NCBI GenBank assembly: GCA_963714015.1 | Contig: OY970223.1 | Coordinates: 832,001 to 896,000 of the forward strand | DNA length: 64,000 bases | Origin: Vulcanimicrobiota bacterium | GTDB taxonomy: Bacteria > Vulcanimicrobiota > Vulcanimicrobiia > Vulcanimicrobiales > Vulcanimicrobiaceae | Direction of reading: 5' to 3' | Shown here: piece after piece, positions 24,883 through 29,195 of the stretch | Layout: the number at the start of each line of letters is the position of its first letter | Position numbering within the stretch: the first letter of the stretch is position 1 | Made by a program: the position numbers and the translations under genes | Notes under the pieces: model-generated | Seen by the model: the letters and a program-made list of their open reading frames with translations, nothing else | What the model was told of the DNA's origin: nothing | The model's database searches: none

Positions 24883-25335
24883 ATGTATCAGGTCATCGTT
24901 TTCATTCACGTGCTTTCGGCAATCGTCGCGGTCGGATACAACGCGACGTACGTGGTATGGCTCACCCGCGGCGGCATGGAGCGCGCTCACCTGCTCTTTG
25001 CACTGCGAACGATCCGCTTCATGGACGCCAAGATCGCCAATCCCGCCTACGGGCTGCTGTTGGTAACGGGGGTCGCGCAAGTGATGCTTTCGCACCGCTC
25101 GTGGCATGAAGCGTGGATCGAATGGGCGATCGTCCTGTGGATCGTGCTTGCCGCTGTTGCCTACGGCGCCTATACGCCGGCGCTGAAGCGTCAAATCGCA
25201 ATCGTCGAAGGAGGTGACGTTTCGGGAGAACAGTATGCGGCTGCGAACCGGCGCGCGACGGCAATCGGTGCTTCGTTGATGGTTCTTGCGCTCGCTATTC
25301 TCGGGCTGATGGTATTCCGCCCCGGCGGAGCTTGA
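24883..25335 (+). CDS. DUF2269-like four-TM membrane protein
   Basis: FIHVLSAIVAVG N-terminus; LLLVTG; LMVFRP C-terminus; strong SD. Confidence 0.8.
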   Translation: MYQVIVFIHVLSAIVAVGYNATYVVWLTRGGMERAHLLFALRTIRFMDAKIANPAYGLLLVTGVAQVMLSHRSWHEAWIEWAIVLWIVLAAVAYGAYTPALKRQIAIVEGGDVSGEQYAAANRRATAIGASLMVLALAILGLMVFRPGGA

Positions 25336-25342
25336 CGCGCCG

Positions 25343-26242
25343 ATGCGCGTACTGCTGATCGTCAACGAAAAGTCGCGAAAGGGCGGCCGTGAGGGCGCAC
25401 TCGTCTGCAGCACGCTCGAAGACCTCGGGATTGACTGCTCGCAGGATGCCTCGGCGGAGAACGTTGATGCGGTAGTGGCGGCCGGCGGCGACGGTACGGT
25501 GATCTCCACGCTTCCAATTGCGATAGAGCGGGGCGTCCCCCTCGGCGTCGTGCCGCTCGGAACGTTCAACGACCTTGCTCGAACGCTCGGGATTCCACTG
25601 GACGTTCGGGGAGCGTGCGAAACGATCGCGGCAGGGGCCGTGCATGAAATCGACGCCGGCCGCGTCAACGGGTCGTATTTCGTGAACGAAGCGAGCGTCG
25701 GACTCTCAACGCGCATCGCGCGGCGCCAGACTCCGCAAGTCAAGCAGCGCTTTGGTTTGTTGGGAGTCGCTGCGACCGCGCTGCAAAGCCTGCGCGCCGC
25801 ACGTTTCTTTACGGTAACGTTGACGTATGGCGATGGTGCGGTCGAGCGGTTCCGGACGATACAGCTCACCGTTGCCAACAATGCGCGATTCGGCGGCATT
25901 ATGGAAAGGCCCGGCGCTTCGATCGACGACGGCTGGCTCGACCTTTACTCGATAGAGCCGCGCAACTGGCTGCAAGCAGTGCGCGTGGCCGGAAAAATTC
26001 TCGCGCGCGATCCAGACTCCGGCGAAGGTTTGCGGACCCGGCGCGCAGCGAGGTTTGACGTTTCTACAAACCACCGGCATCACGTCGCAGCCGACGGAGA
26101 AGCGGCCGGTTTTACGCCGGCCGTCTTTGAAATCGTTCCGAAGGCGGTCCGCGTCTTTGTGCCTAAGGCGGCCGGATGCGCTACAGAACCCTCGGACATT
26201 CCGGACTCAAAGTTTCAACCGTCGGACTCGGTTCCTGGCTGA
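25343..26242 (+). CDS. Diacylglycerol/lipid kinase family (YegS/DAGKc)
   Basis: VNEKS, AGGDGT, PLGTFNDLAR, VANNARFGG, DDGWLD and ADGE motifs. Confidence 0.92.
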   Translation: MRVLLIVNEKSRKGGREGALVCSTLEDLGIDCSQDASAENVDAVVAAGGDGTVISTLPIAIERGVPLGVVPLGTFNDLARTLGIPLDVRGACETIAAGAVHEIDAGRVNGSYFVNEASVGLSTRIARRQTPQVKQRFGLLGVAATALQSLRAARFFTVTLTYGDGAVERFRTIQLTVANNARFGGIMERPGASIDDGWLDLYSIEPRNWLQAVRVAGKILARDPDSGEGLRTRRAARFDVSTNHRHHVAADGEAAGFTPAVFEIVPKAVRVFVPKAAGCATEPSDIPDSKFQPSDSVPG

Positions 26243-27150
26243 CGTACGGCGGAAACGTCGGAGCGGACACGGCCCGTGCATGCGTGCTGCGCGCATGGGA
26301 GAAGGGCGTCAACTTCATCGACACCGCAAACGTGTACGCGCGCGGTGCAGCCGAAGAAGTCCTTGGACCGATCTTGCGGGAGCTGAACCGCGACGCGCTG
26401 GTTCTGGCCACGAAGGTGTACTTTCCGATGGGCGACACGGTGAACGAACACGGCCTCTCGCGTAAGCACATCCGCGACCAAGTGCATCATTCGCTGCGGC
26501 GCTTGAAAGTCGACTACATCGATCTCTATCAATGCCACCGCTTCGATCAGACGACGCCGATTGAAGAGACGTGTGAGATGATGAACGATCTCGTTCGATC
26601 GGGATGGATTCTCTACTGGGGCGTTTCGGAATGGAACGCGGATCAAATCTCGTCCGCGGTAACGCTGTGCCGCGCCCGCGGCTGGGCAGCACCGATCAGC
26701 AACCAGCCTCAGTACAGCGCGCTTTGGCGCCGCATCGAGCAGCGCGTACTGCCCACTTGCGAGGCGTACGGTGTAGGGAACGTCGTGTGGTCGCCGCTGG
26801 CTATGGGAATCTTAACCGGGAAATACACGGATGCGAAAAACCCGCCGCCCGGCACTCGCGCGGCCGGTTCGAACCGTGACATGATGGAGGACTACTTCAC
26901 CCAGCCCGTACTGGATGCCGTGGCGCAGTTGCGGCCGCTTGCCGAGAGCGCCGGTTGTACGCTCGCGCAACTCGCGCTTGCATGGTGCTTGCGCCGGCCT
27001 GCGGTCAGCAGCGTAATCGTCGGCGCGACAAAAGCACAGCACGTCGACGATAACGTCGGTGCCGCGGATCTGGCCGTCGATGCCGCAATCTTCGCACAGA
27101 TGGATCGTATGTTGGAGCCGGTCGCCCCGAGCGAACCGTATCTCAGTTAA
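26176..27150 (+). CDS. Aldo/keto reductase (Kv-beta-like)
   Basis: GLGSW, DTANVY, ATKV, DLYQCH, WGVSEW, NQPQYS and WSPLA motifs. Confidence 0.95.
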   Translation: MRYRTLGHSGLKVSTVGLGSWLTYGGNVGADTARACVLRAWEKGVNFIDTANVYARGAAEEVLGPILRELNRDALVLATKVYFPMGDTVNEHGLSRKHIRDQVHHSLRRLKVDYIDLYQCHRFDQTTPIEETCEMMNDLVRSGWILYWGVSEWNADQISSAVTLCRARGWAAPISNQPQYSALWRRIEQRVLPTCEAYGVGNVVWSPLAMGILTGKYTDAKNPPPGTRAAGSNRDMMEDYFTQPVLDAVAQLRPLAESAGCTLAQLALAWCLRRPAVSSVIVGATKAQHVDDNVGAADLAVDAAIFAQMDRMLEPVAPSEPYLS

Positions 27151-27156
27151 AAGCGC

Positions 27157-27300
27157 CTTAAAAAAGATTTGGGCTGACGATGGTGGAGGCATCGTCAGCC
27201 CTTCTTGCTGCACTCTACGAGGTTGGAGTCGAACGGGTTACTGACGTGGAGGACAACAGCCCGTTTTCCATCTCGCATGACTATCATGCGGATGAAACCT
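27157..27300 (-). ncRNA. Candidate structured RNA (3'-UTR sRNA or attenuator) with CCUCCAC anti-SD loops, ending in a terminator
   Basis: Minus-strand hairpins: UUUCAUCCGCAUGA-UAG-UCAUGCGAGAUGGAA; AACGGGCUGUUG-UCCUCCA-CGUCAGUAACCCGUU; GGGCUGACGAUG-CCUCCAC-CAUCGUCAGCCC, then AAAUCUUUUUU. G-U pairs are valid only on the minus strand. Confidence 0.6.
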
Positions 27301-27310
27301 TAAATGCGCC

Positions 27311-27481
27311 TTAATTCCAGTTTTTCAGCAGATTACCAACGCCTGAGACTTTTGGGCCCCAGCCGCTGAACGACGCCGTATCCGGCGTGTTCGACATGAC
27401 GCGCGCGATCGTAATCGTCGGACGCGTGTCGGCATCTGTCTGGGTCGTTATAGGCGCTTGCGCTTTCCTAGCGGTTTTCAC
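27311..27481 (-). CDS. Small protein (56 aa) with FxGWGPK motif, peptide A
   Basis: AAGGA SD 7 nt before GTG at 27481: MKTARKAQAPITTQTDADTRPTITIARVMSNTPDTASFSGWGPKVSGVGNLLKNWN. The track start at 27526 is an alternative. Aligns with 32535-32651. Confidence 0.65.
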   Translation of the reverse strand: MKTARKAQAPITTQTDADTRPTITIARVMSNTPDTASFSGWGPKVSGVGNLLKNWN

Positions 27482-27531
27482 AATTGAATCCTTTATGAGT
27501 TCGGGAACGCACACCGCGTGTTCCATTCCGT

Positions 27532-27635
27532 ACTGTACATCCGCTTCTACTGCGCGCCTACAACTTTTGTTTCATGCGATTTTGTCGCAGAACGCGCGAT
27601 GCGATTTCGTTGTGACGGTTTGAACTATTTCGTTG
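27532..27635 (-). promoter_or_regulatory. Candidate -10 and three spaced direct repeats upstream of peptide A
   Basis: TACAGT (minus strand, 27532-27537); ATTTYGTYG at 27579-27587, 27604-27612 and 27627-27635 (spacing 25 and 23 bp). Confidence 0.5.
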
Positions 27636-27803
27636 TTCGAGGTGTTATACGTTCACAGAAGACTCGTTCGAATCGTTATCGACTCTTGGCGGGGTGCGGA
27701 ACATCGGCCGCGTGGCAGCGTATAACGGAAGGAACCGCTGTTCCGGGCGCGGCGGGGCCCGGCGGCGGAGCCCGAGAACCGCACATGGGGAAGGAACGCG
27801 CTG

Positions 27804-29195
27804 ATGACCATTTATCGATTCGGCCCATTCCGGCTCGAGAAGGAGCCGTTGCTCCTGCGGGTCGGCGAAAGCACCCTGCCGCTGGGTCCCAAGGTCGTCG
27901 AAACATTGCTCGCGCTCATCGAACGTCCCGGCCAGGTCCTCTCCAAAGCGGACCTGCTGGCGCGAGTATGGCCCGAGGGGTACGTCGAGGAAGCGAACCT
28001 CGCGCAGAATATCTACGTCATTCGCAAGGCGCTGCGTTCGCACTGGGGTCAGTGTCCGATCGAAACCGTTCCGAGGCGCGGTTACCGTTTCTCGGCCCCG
28101 GTTACCACCGGCGACCTGGCCGCCCCGGCGCCGCGCAATCGCAGCCGGCTCTGGATGGGCGCCGGCGCAGCCGCGGTCTTTGCGTTGGCGGTCGCAGCGG
28201 GAAGCATCGGCGTGGCAAACTCTCGCGCATCTACGACCGCCAGCTTGTCCGAACCGGGCGCGCGGCTGTACTCCATGGGCAAGTTCTATTGGAATCAGCG
28301 CACAGCTTCTAGCGTCGTCAAGAGCGTTCGGTACTTCCAGGAAGTGATTCAAAGCGATCCTCATGACGCTCTCGGCTATGCGGGACTGGCGTCGGCATAT
28401 GCCATCGAGGGCGACTATCATTTCGGACCGCTGTCGAAGCCCCAAGCGTTTGCCCTCGCGTCCGATTACGCGCGCAAGGCGCTGAGCATCGACCCGCGGT
28501 CGGCCGAAGCGATGGCGGACATCGGTTTGGCGCAAGTGGACGCGGGCCACGAATCTGCCGGAGAGCTGTGGTTCCGGCGTGCCATTGCCGCCAACAACAG
28601 CTACGCGCCGGCGCATCAGTGGTACGGGATGTCGCTGCTGCAGCGCGGCAACGGCGCGGCCGCTTACCGGGAACTGCAGCGAGCCGCGAACTTGGATCCG
28701 GAGTCCGTTGCAGCGACGGACTGGCTCTCGCAAGCTGCTTACTTGTCACGACGCTATCGCGATGCCGTCAGCTACGCGCGTCAGACCCTGGATCTTTCAT
28801 CGCAGCGGTACGACGCTTACGGCACGATGGGGATGGCCTACGAGGCGCTCGGCGATTACCATAAAGCAATCGTTTCGTACGAAATCTTCGCGCGCAGTTG
28901 CGCCGCGTGTCAAGGCGAAGCGGCGGCACTGATGGCCCACGCGTACGCGGCGATTCACGATGATTCGGCGGCTGAAGCAGAGCTCAGCAAAGCTCGCGCT
29001 GCGATGGCCATGCAGATGGTCGATCCCGAGGACCTCGTCACGGCGCTGGTGGCGATGGGACGGCGCACCGAAGCGCTCAAGATGCTCGAAGACCATAAGC
29101 GGGCGCTCTTTCCCGGAGCGCTTGCGATCGATCCGCGAATGGATCCCGTACGGGACGACAAGCGTTTCCGCCTCTTCATCAAGGGTCCGGGCTAA
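27804..29195 (+). CDS. CadC/ToxR-like regulator: OmpR-type wHTH, TM helix, TPR array
   Basis: YRFGPFRL...LSKADLLARVWP..VEEANLAQNIYVIRKAL..IETVPRRGYRF; hydrophobic LWMGAGAAAVFALAVAAGSIGV; several TPR repeats. Confidence 0.92.
   Translation: MTIYRFGPFRLEKEPLLLRVGESTLPLGPKVVETLLALIERPGQVLSKADLLARVWPEGYVEEANLAQNIYVIRKALRSHWGQCPIETVPRRGYRFSAPVTTGDLAAPAPRNRSRLWMGAGAAAVFALAVAAGSIGVANSRASTTASLSEPGARLYSMGKFYWNQRTASSVVKSVRYFQEVIQSDPHDALGYAGLASAYAIEGDYHFGPLSKPQAFALASDYARKALSIDPRSAEAMADIGLAQVDAGHESAGELWFRRAIAANNSYAPAHQWYGMSLLQRGNGAAAYRELQRAANLDPESVAATDWLSQAAYLSRRYRDAVSYARQTLDLSSQRYDAYGTMGMAYEALGDYHKAIVSYEIFARSCAACQGEAAALMAHAYAAIHDDSAAEAELSKARAAMAMQMVDPEDLVTALVAMGRRTEALKMLEDHKRALFPGALAIDPRMDPVRDDKRFRLFIKGPG

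Follow-up and report, generated by a model that had tools for sequence, protein, structure and literature searches.

Does the run of hairpins that follows a small open reading frame (ORF) on the minus strand of this 64,000-nucleotide stretch simply end a transcript, or is it an RNA with a function of its own? The stretch, called the window throughout, covers positions 832,001 to 896,000 of contig OY970223.1 from a Vulcanimicrobiota bacterium, and the hairpins lie at 27153-27314. A preliminary description of the window had offered two readings of them, a dual-function transcript consisting of a peptide and a small RNA (sRNA), and a transcription attenuator whose read-through would run antisense to an aldo/keto reductase gene. 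Comparison with relatives shows that the region is a conserved structured RNA family that has no Rfam model and occurs in part of one family of the Eremiobacterota, an uncultured lineage of soil bacteria. The dual-function reading fits what we find, namely a link between ORF and RNA in 30 of 30 loci, covariation of the helices, and a near-invariant hairpin loop and 19-mer, and we think it somewhat probable that the region is the 3′-untranslated region (3′UTR) of the small-protein mRNA acting as a built-in base-pairing sRNA within a dual-function transcript.

A conserved structured RNA behind the small ORF

Folding of 27153-27314 (162 nt) gives -60 kcal/mol, compared with -40.5 ± 3.6 kcal/mol in 200 shuffles (z = -5.4), none of which equals it. 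The consecutive minus-strand hairpins that had been described after the peptide stop codon are borne out: hairpin H1 at 27266-27297 (UUUCAU/CCGCAUG...CAUGCG/GAUGGAA), hairpin H2 at 27232-27265 with the loop CCUCCAC at 27252-27246, a weak H3 of 4 bp at 27212-27229 that is seen from sequence and folding, and a final hairpin at 27160-27201. The last of these has the GC-rich stem-loop and U-tract of an intrinsic terminator, with a stem-loop at 27171-27201, a perfect 12-bp stem containing 8 GC pairs, a 7-nt loop (CCUCCAC, 27189-27183) and then AAAUCUUUUUU / AAAUCUUUUU, which places the U-tract at 27165-27160.

The helices were compared in a MAFFT alignment of the 30 best sequences that was not structure-fitted, with the counted structure written from the same sequences; because the structure was drawn from the aligned sequences themselves and the genomes are related, the shuffle numbers from this alignment overstate significance. 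Within it, 85.2% of cells are paired versus 72.6% in shuffles, changes on both sides are found in 32 of 34 pairs, and the covariation score is 0.420 versus 0.203, with 0 of 500 shuffles as high and slid controls at 0.04-0.10. Covariation upstream of the final hairpin was looked for and is present in both H1 and H2. The two helices of H1 are 96.1% and 94.2% paired, with both-side changes in 8 of 10 pairs and with variants that include CCGCAUG/CAUGCG, UCGUAUC/GAUACG, CCACACC/GGUGUG and CCGUGCG/CGCACG, and H2 has both-side changes in all 12 of its pairs, with 86.3% of cells paired. The many independent pair types are convincing, and H1 and H2 are real RNA helices. The two terminator helices fall to 65% and 79% pairing, as the 12 most distant sequences do not align in register at this point, and covariation in these helices is clean in an 8-sequence alignment.

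The strongest sequence constraint lies in the unpaired 19-mer, not in the loops. This 19-nt stretch, CCUCGUAGAGUGCAGCAAG, occupies 27204-27222, is unpaired or weakly paired in folds, and contains the anti-Shine-Dalgarno (anti-SD) element CCUC together with what we propose to be the seed; its unpaired part CCUCGUAGAGUGCAGCAA(G), alignment columns C82-A96, is invariant or at least 90% conserved. The loop columns of H2, C50-C56 (CUCCACC), are at least 90% conserved as well, and in the terminator loop CUCCAC is kept in the closer 18 of the 30 sequences, the more distant ones having unrelated short loops there. The H2 copy of the CCUCCAC motif is thus universal in the family and the terminator-loop copy specific to one clade. 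Two related modules carrying CCUCCAC had been described, and in this genome they are real, since GGGCUG opens both H2 and the terminator and CCUCCAC is displayed in both loops; across the family only the H2 copy of the motif holds. Neither the 19-mer as the most conserved part, nor the clade-specific nature of the terminator-loop motif, nor a conserved promoter-like box upstream had been recognized in the preliminary description. The motif is not rare in the window, where CCTCCAC occurs at 9 sites compared with 4.6 expected, an over-representation that is not significant (4 of 100 shuffles reach 9), so its count alone shows nothing and the evidence is the comparative evidence of conservation. 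A search of 26500-28200 with cmscan against all 4227 Rfam families found no match in 27153-27314 at E ≤ 10. A tmRNA or T-loop idea based on GUUCGACUCC was dropped because there is no Rfam match.

A DNA search of 60 relatives gave full-length homologs with 71-79% identity in five genomes; others had partial homologs. A covariance model, R1, whose E-values are rough, was built from 8 sequences and matches 37 of 151 genomes of the family (Baltobacteraceae-type Eremiobacterota) and 15 of its 78 genera, with a single copy per genome apart from a weak second match in one genome. When an exact 16-mer of the conserved stretch was scanned in one genome per prokaryotic species, the matches were mostly of the kind expected by chance, in unrelated phyla and in about the number expected; 100 of the 120 loci returned were tested with the model and 12 fitted it. 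Ten of these 12 are labelled Baltobacteraceae, Eremiobacteria/Eremiobacteraeota or Vulcanimicrobiota and the other 2 only "bacterium", and among the 100 tested loci none from another named phylum fitted. A full-text literature search combining Eremiobacterota and small RNA found no paper on the subject, and no regulatory RNA is known to have been reported from this phylum.

A small-protein family older than its RNA tail

The small ORF (27311-27481, minus strand) begins with GTG at 27481 behind the Shine-Dalgarno (SD) sequence AAAGGA and ends with TAA at 27313-27311, encoding 56 residues. It stands directly upstream of the RNA in 30 of 30 loci, where the start codon falls at an aligned column (24 GTG, 4 ATG and 2 TTG) preceded by an AAGGA-type SD, and its length across the family is 52-56 aa. 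A 71-aa form that starts from an ATG at 27526, and that also appears as the public protein P0001, is probably an over-extended call, as its ATG lies inside a conserved hairpin of the 5′-untranslated region (5′UTR). That hairpin, GGAACAC...GUGCGUUCC at 27504-27524, shows compensatory changes by eye in the alignments, in which GGAACGC/GCGUUCC, GGAACAC/GUGUUCC and GGAGCGCG/CGCGCUC alternate (alignment view, no formal count). The peptide consensus is ..RPTIS(L/F)..VI......SF.GWGPKV........WN, with P21, F38, G40, W41, G42, P43, V45 and N56 invariant and with changes visible at third codon positions. In all 30 loci, then, the ORF combines a conserved SD, start and residues with synonymous variation, from which translation is predicted.

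No Pfam family matches the ORF, nor any of the 30 homologs at E ≤ 10, so that there is neither a DUF1127 nor a known RNA-binding domain, and the 30 sequences are not consistently basic. In the ESM Atlas the only matches are below 0.9 and to unnamed clusters. AlphaFold2 run with the 30 sequences gives no secondary structure, with a mean confidence (pLDDT) of 62 and a predicted template modeling score of 0.16, and the peptide is thus predicted to be disordered alone. A profile hidden Markov model (HMM) search of 1.84 billion representatives returned 62 matches at E ≤ 0.001, about 40 of them small proteins of the same kind, and one ORF homolog is assigned by NCBI to a Candidatus Baltobacteraceae metagenome-assembled genome. 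We judge from these searches that this is a new small-protein family restricted to Eremiobacterota. The other HMM matches are repeat proteins of 437-1898 aa that align only at profile positions ~30-48; in two large cell-surface proteins among the repeat-bearing sequences, P0036 and P0064, the repeats YTFAGW(S/T/N/D/A)P.V resemble SF(G/S)GWGPKV over ~15 residues, a likeness that we take to be a motif-level coincidence and not homology. The conserved neighborhood has an outer-membrane-protein-like gene upstream and reductase and lipid-kinase genes downstream, and the idea of a precursor of a ribosomally synthesized and post-translationally modified peptide, such as a lasso peptide, was rejected, as this neighborhood contains no modifying enzymes and the peptide has no ring-forming acidic residue.

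A search with a peptide profile across 401 genomes of the phylum, a set that includes genomes flagged as unpublished (as do the counts of target sites in relatives given below, none of these genomes being among the 30 aligned loci), finds the peptide in 98. These comprise 89 of 296 genomes in the family to which the window belongs together with 1 of 5 genomes in one sister family and 7 of 30 in another, and 0 in 18 other families. At class level the peptide occurs with plain terminators, and it is therefore older and more widespread than the RNA.

Comparison of the tails at peptide loci outside the 30 aligned ones suggests how the RNA may have been assembled. At some loci (G098, G027 and G168) the peptide is shortened and the RNA absent, with the end of the reductase gene present, and loci of the sister families carry a plain terminator (G404; unpublished G372 and G059). 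In G033, and likewise in the unpublished G021, H1 and H2 with its CCUCCAC loop are present without the 19-mer and terminator, while G083 has only a duplicated CUCGUAGA...CUCGUAGAGUGCAGCAAC, having lost H1 and H2 and kept the 19-mer. Smaller variations are a variant third element in G029 and, in G075 and G126, CUCC-UUCA-GGAG in place of CUC-GUA-GAG before AGUGCAGCAGG. The relatives thus seem to preserve intermediate stages, with the peptide only, with H1 and H2 added, with the seed only, and with the full set.

A candidate target in the 5′UTR of a lipoprotein peptidase gene

The genome contains a single 14-nt perfect complement of the 19-mer, UUCUUGCUGCACUC at G000:359651, for which we estimate that ~0.2 would be expected by chance. 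It ends 17 nt before an AUG and adjoins the SD UAGGAGG of a gene for an 801-aa lipoprotein with a pro-kumamolisin activation domain (PF09286), that is, an S53-type peptidase. Gene calls in this search were crude ORF heuristics, and among the 5736 crude 5′ regions ranked, that of the S53 gene comes second at -29.6 kcal/mol (mean -15.3, standard deviation 2.7), the first being a doubtful ORF. The 12-mer CUUGCUGCACUC is found in the same UTR of two orthologs, one in the same genus (G001, 82% amino acid identity) and one in another genus (G084, 47%), and in all three UTRs GUGGAG occurs 19-27 nt upstream; G061 and G002 each have CUUGCUGCACUC in the 5′UTR of a different lipoprotein gene as well. When the RNA of each of G000, G001 and G084 is co-folded with the S53 UTR of the same genome, the free energy changes by -26.8, -18.7 and -24.2 kcal/mol, with the 19-mer paired to the box and CCUC/CUCC of the RNA paired to the SD, and in G084 19 inter-molecular pairs run through GAGG. 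A core of 8-9 nt is present in the orthologous UTRs of 8 of 21 sRNA-bearing genomes versus 0 of 11 non-bearing ones, and a core of 7 nt in 11 of 21 versus 2 of 11, though as kin these genomes do not count as independent. One compensatory change is seen in genus g60, with GCAGCAGG in the seed and CCUGUUGCA in the UTR. Taken together, these matches make the S53 lipoprotein peptidase mRNA a tentative lead as a target, one that may well prove wrong.

A number of observations weigh against regulation of this kind. Ten of the 21 sRNA-bearing genomes do not have even a 7-nt core in the S53 UTR, and in genus g74 UUGCUGCU stands before the SD of the ortholog with no sRNA or peptide in the genome, so that the box may serve some different purpose. 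Across the genome, 5′ regions show no enrichment of the 8-mer CTTGCTGC, with 9 of 326 sites there (2.8%) compared with 1.4% for permuted words, which reach 5.3% at most; GTGGAGG, set against other NNGGAGG words, shows none ahead of start codons either, and most of the extra 12-mer sites in relatives are inside coding sequence and chance-like. The restriction of CUCCAC in the terminator loop to one clade counts in the same direction, as does the fact that the target lead is built on crude ORF calls and on related, non-independent genomes. The site itself, G000:C1:359610-359664, looks like an inverted partial copy of the 3′ module of the sRNA, with a GUGGAGG-loop hairpin, a U-run and the seed complement, and its complementarity could therefore partly reflect duplication history. 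On the side of the promoter, the box described below is found upstream of none of the 27 candidate sigma-factor genes.

Other features of these sites may be recorded alongside. Two more sites of the form "hairpin + CUUGCUGCACUC" occur in relatives (G001:C16 and G166:C4). A second lipoprotein gene of this genome (G000:C1:215358, minus strand), encoding 554 aa with the lipobox LTAC, carries CCUUGCUGCA immediately ahead of the SD UAGGAGA and ranks 17 in the crude target list. Upstream of the S53 genes (G000:C1:359450-359660 and the orthologous loci L155-L172) there is a conserved palindrome, TAGGTGCAAAACGCACCTA / CTATATGCAAATTGCA, some 90-130 nt ahead of the start; many genera have it, whether they carry the sRNA or not, and it is probably a regulator site.

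A promoter-like box and a proposed mechanism

Upstream of the ORF lies a conserved box, TGAAAC(AAA)-N17-AGTA, at 27548-27574 on the minus strand (TGAAAC 27574-27569, AGTA 27551-27548). In the 30 loci TGAAACAAA is invariant and GTA stands at a fixed distance from it (TGAAACAAA-N14-(C/A)GTA), and of 20 further peptide loci 10 have TGAAACAA-N-CGTA in front, 4 of these being loci without the RNA. The promoter consensus of sigma-W is TGAAAC-N16-CGTA, and promoters of extracytoplasmic function (ECF) sigma factors in general have a -35 element (T/G)GAAC/GAAAC, a -10 element CGT and a spacing of 16-17 nt, and from this likeness we take TGAAAC-N17-(C/A)GTA to be a putative ECF-sigma-type promoter. The genome has 27 Sigma70_r4_2 genes above the cut-off, and an autoregulated ECF sigma factor with the same box was rejected, there being none among these 27 candidates. 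A genome-wide scan for TGAAAC-N16-18-NGTA gave 39 sites and no clear regulon. No internal promoter at the end of the ORF is proposed, because the TTGAAA of close relatives is absent from distant ones.

The features of the locus suggest the following mechanism. Transcription would start from the ECF-sigma-type promoter upstream of the ORF, and the active RNA may be the full-length mRNA or an sRNA of ~140 nt released by cleavage between UUAAAG and UUUCAU. The linker from the stop codon to H1 (27298-27310, GGCGCAUUUAAGG) contains this UUAAAG, and (U)UAAAG before UUUCAU is conserved across the alignments, making the linker a possible processing site; the known preference of RNase E fits the UUAAAG/UUUCAU junction, and the genome encodes RNase E/G as well as Hfq (95 bits). 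The RNA is structured in its 5′ part, continues in a conserved single-stranded seed and finishes in a terminal hairpin with a U-tail; with an Hfq gene also in the genome, this is the architecture of an Hfq-type sRNA. The unpaired 19-mer would act as the seed, its CCUC pairing with the SD (GGAG/GAGG) and its AGUGCAGCAAG with the (C/U)UUGCUGCAC(U) box that lies immediately 5′ to the SD, so that ribosome binding would be blocked, and the CCUCCAC loops may add contacts at GUGGAG(G) sites. The best candidate target would be the S53 (pro-kumamolisin-type) lipoprotein peptidase mRNA, with other lipoprotein mRNAs in relatives, and repression via the S53 5′UTR would depend on AGUGCAGCAA and CCUC of the RNA. 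The module as a whole would then be an envelope-type stress response that lowers the synthesis of exported lipoproteins.

In its fullest form this proposal describes a self-contained stress module that would have converged on both ccaF1-CcsR and sigma-E/MicL, in which an ECF sigma factor drives one short transcript that yields a disordered protein of 52-56 aa and a 3′UTR sRNA silencing S53 lipoprotein mRNAs over the SD, the tail having been added stepwise to an older gene; as a complete chain we hold it to be possible but doubtful. If true, it would provide the first riboregulator and the first sRNA-target pair defined in the uncultured phylum Eremiobacterota (WPS-2). The locus brings a new small-protein family and a new RNA family whose covariation is good, together with a concrete promoter box, seed and candidate target at which sites for compensatory mutation can be named. 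It would also be an independent case of a small-protein gene with an anti-SD sRNA in its 3′UTR, which bears on how often 3′UTRs become regulators.

Alternative explanations

A purely cis-acting 3′ end would account for part of these features, its hairpins stabilizing the mRNA against exonucleases and the last of them serving as a bidirectional terminator shared with the reductase gene, with no target in trans. The last hairpin does score as terminator-like on both strands, the plus strand being that of the convergent aldo/keto reductase gene, which explains this hairpin; in 28 of 30 loci only a few bases separate the end of the reductase gene from the terminator, and any conserved helix is expected to covary. 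Stabilizing hairpins, however, need neither an invariant loop nor an invariant unpaired stretch of 19 nt, and the modules are retained independently of one another, the 19-mer without H1 and H2 in G083, and H1 and H2 without the 19-mer and terminator in G033. Two loci that have no reductase gene, L030 and L041, keep the RNA, and the peptide-only loci (G098, G027 and G168) manage without such a tail, and we regard a role confined to the transcript itself as unlikely. Less likely again is an RNA that works by binding protein, whose H2 loop and 19-mer would be recognized by the small protein, by Hfq or by another RNA-binding protein, as a partner or sponge and not through mRNA pairing. A peptide predicted to be disordered alone, like many proteins that fold on a partner, would suit such a role, and the strict linkage of ORF and RNA in 30 of 30 loci resembles that of ccaF1-CcsR (PMC8034643). 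The peptide family is nonetheless wider than the RNA, occurring at class level with plain terminators, its members are neither consistently basic nor provided with an RNA-binding domain (0 of 30 in Pfam at E ≤ 10), and the 19-mer shows extended complementarity to a conserved 5′UTR.

The two remaining explanations look very improbable. In the attenuator that had been proposed, H2 and the terminator would be mutually exclusive, and read-through would run antisense to the aldo/keto reductase gene (PF00248), which is convergent and has its stop at 27150, 10 nt beyond the U-tract. The complementarity on which this idea was based, between CGUCAG of H2 and CUGACG of the terminator arm, is present in this genome; the exclusive fold drawn from it does not hold up, since forcing it gives -41.2 kcal/mol versus -52.4 kcal/mol for the minimum free energy structure of the 139-nt RNA, a cost of 11.2 kcal/mol, and since the longest helix between H2 and the terminator arm ranges from 2 to 9 bp in relatives and is at most 5 bp in 19 of 30. 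H2 and the terminator instead covary as independent hairpins, and no sensing element, such as a leader-peptide stall site or a ligand pocket, is evident; it is the cost of the alternative pairing, some 11 kcal/mol, and its lack of conservation that leave the attenuator reading unsupported. An equally remote explanation would place the functional RNA on the plus strand, as a structured 3′UTR of the reductase mRNA whose loops show the SD-like GUGGAGG. The helices are so nearly palindromic that either strand can fold, R1 gives weak opposite-strand matches, a terminator is called on the plus strand, and synteny with the reductase gene is tight (28 of 30). Against these points, cells with G-U outnumber cells with A-C by 20:5 in H1, an excess that favors the minus strand, although H2 is neutral at 12:10; the long U-tract is found on the minus strand only; and the element tracks the small ORF (30 of 30) and not the reductase gene, being present without it in L030 and L041 and absent with it in G098, G027 and G168. 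The base-pairing 3′UTR sRNA of a dual-function transcript is accordingly the reading that we carry into the comparison with known systems.

Relation to known systems

The closest known system is ccaF1-CcsR1-4 of Rhodobacter sphaeroides, whose "cuckoo" RNAs are part of Rfam alpha-r14. As described in PMC8034643, a 71-aa small protein is co-transcribed with sRNAs in the 3′UTR of its gene, CcaF1 binds and matures the CcsR sRNAs, and a CCUCCUCCC motif is displayed in the loops of two hairpins per RNA. Both that system and the one described here join a small-protein gene to an sRNA in the 3′UTR, with C/U-rich anti-SD loops and a terminator at the end, and both would be placed under stress-type control, by RpoHI/HII promoters there and by what appears to be an ECF-like box here. 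The loops in this family, in contrast, read (GU)CCUCCAC(C) and not CCUCCUCCC, only CCUCC being common to the two, and one RNA with two motif hairpins and a long linear seed takes the place of four tandem two-hairpin sRNAs. CcsR RNAs are made from a 3′UTR by RNase E, and the RNA described here likewise sits in a 3′UTR, in a genome with an RNase E/G gene. In the CIN1 subgroup of CcsR the adjacent ORF has DUF1127, which is found in 0 of 30 homologs here by Pfam; there is no Rfam match to this RNA; and the hosts are Eremiobacterota as opposed to Alphaproteobacteria. Membership in CcsR/cuckoo or alpha-r14, the RNAs with which the preliminary description had compared this one, is thus not upheld, with no Rfam match at E ≤ 10, no DUF1127, and CCUCCAC rather than CCUCCUCCC. 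The motif, Rfam-model and DUF1127 tests all fail, and the likeness looks like convergence and not homology.

A second parallel is MicL, a sigma-E-dependent enterobacterial envelope sRNA that represses the lipoprotein Lpp (PMC4102768). The proposed logic is alike, with an ECF sigma factor leading through an sRNA to less of an exported lipoprotein, and each sRNA is located within or after a protein-coding gene and has a terminator suited to Hfq at its end. There is no relation of sequence or structure between the two RNAs, and for the present RNA both sigma dependence and a lipoprotein target are suggested by motifs; the promoter of MicL is inside cutC, whereas the conserved promoter-like box here precedes the small ORF.

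Dual-function sRNAs such as SgrS/SgrT, RNAIII/hld and SR1/SR1P have one transcript with a conserved small ORF and a base-pairing region. The RNA described here differs from them in that its pairing part would be wholly 3′ of the ORF, and maybe released by processing. RsaE/RoxS and 6C have C-rich motifs in hairpin loops, repeated within one RNA, that are complementary to G-rich ribosome-binding sites; in this family, by contrast, there is no Rfam match and the main constraint is on an unpaired 19-mer with a 5′ anti-SD CCUC.

Neighboring genes and upstream sequence

On the plus strand of the window, 24883-27150 holds three co-oriented genes that converge on the small gene and encode a DUF2269 membrane protein, a YegS-like lipid kinase (PF00781/PF19279) and the aldo/keto reductase; the kinase and reductase genes keep their synteny in most of the 30 loci. 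On the other side, a divergent gene at 27804-29195 (plus strand) encodes a protein with an N-terminal OmpR-type winged helix (PF00486, Trans_reg_C), followed by one predicted membrane helix and then by TPR repeats, in an arrangement like that of ToxR/CadC. A homolog of this Trans_reg_C regulator is upstream in 9 of 30 loci, and elsewhere its place is taken by the outer-membrane-protein-like gene. Finally, two copies of the 10-mer ACAACGAAAT, 23 nt apart, lie upstream of the promoter box at 27604-27636 (minus strand), and relatives have GTCAC-containing boxes (..GTCACGAAAT..CCGTCACA..) at the same place, which are possibly a transcription-factor site.

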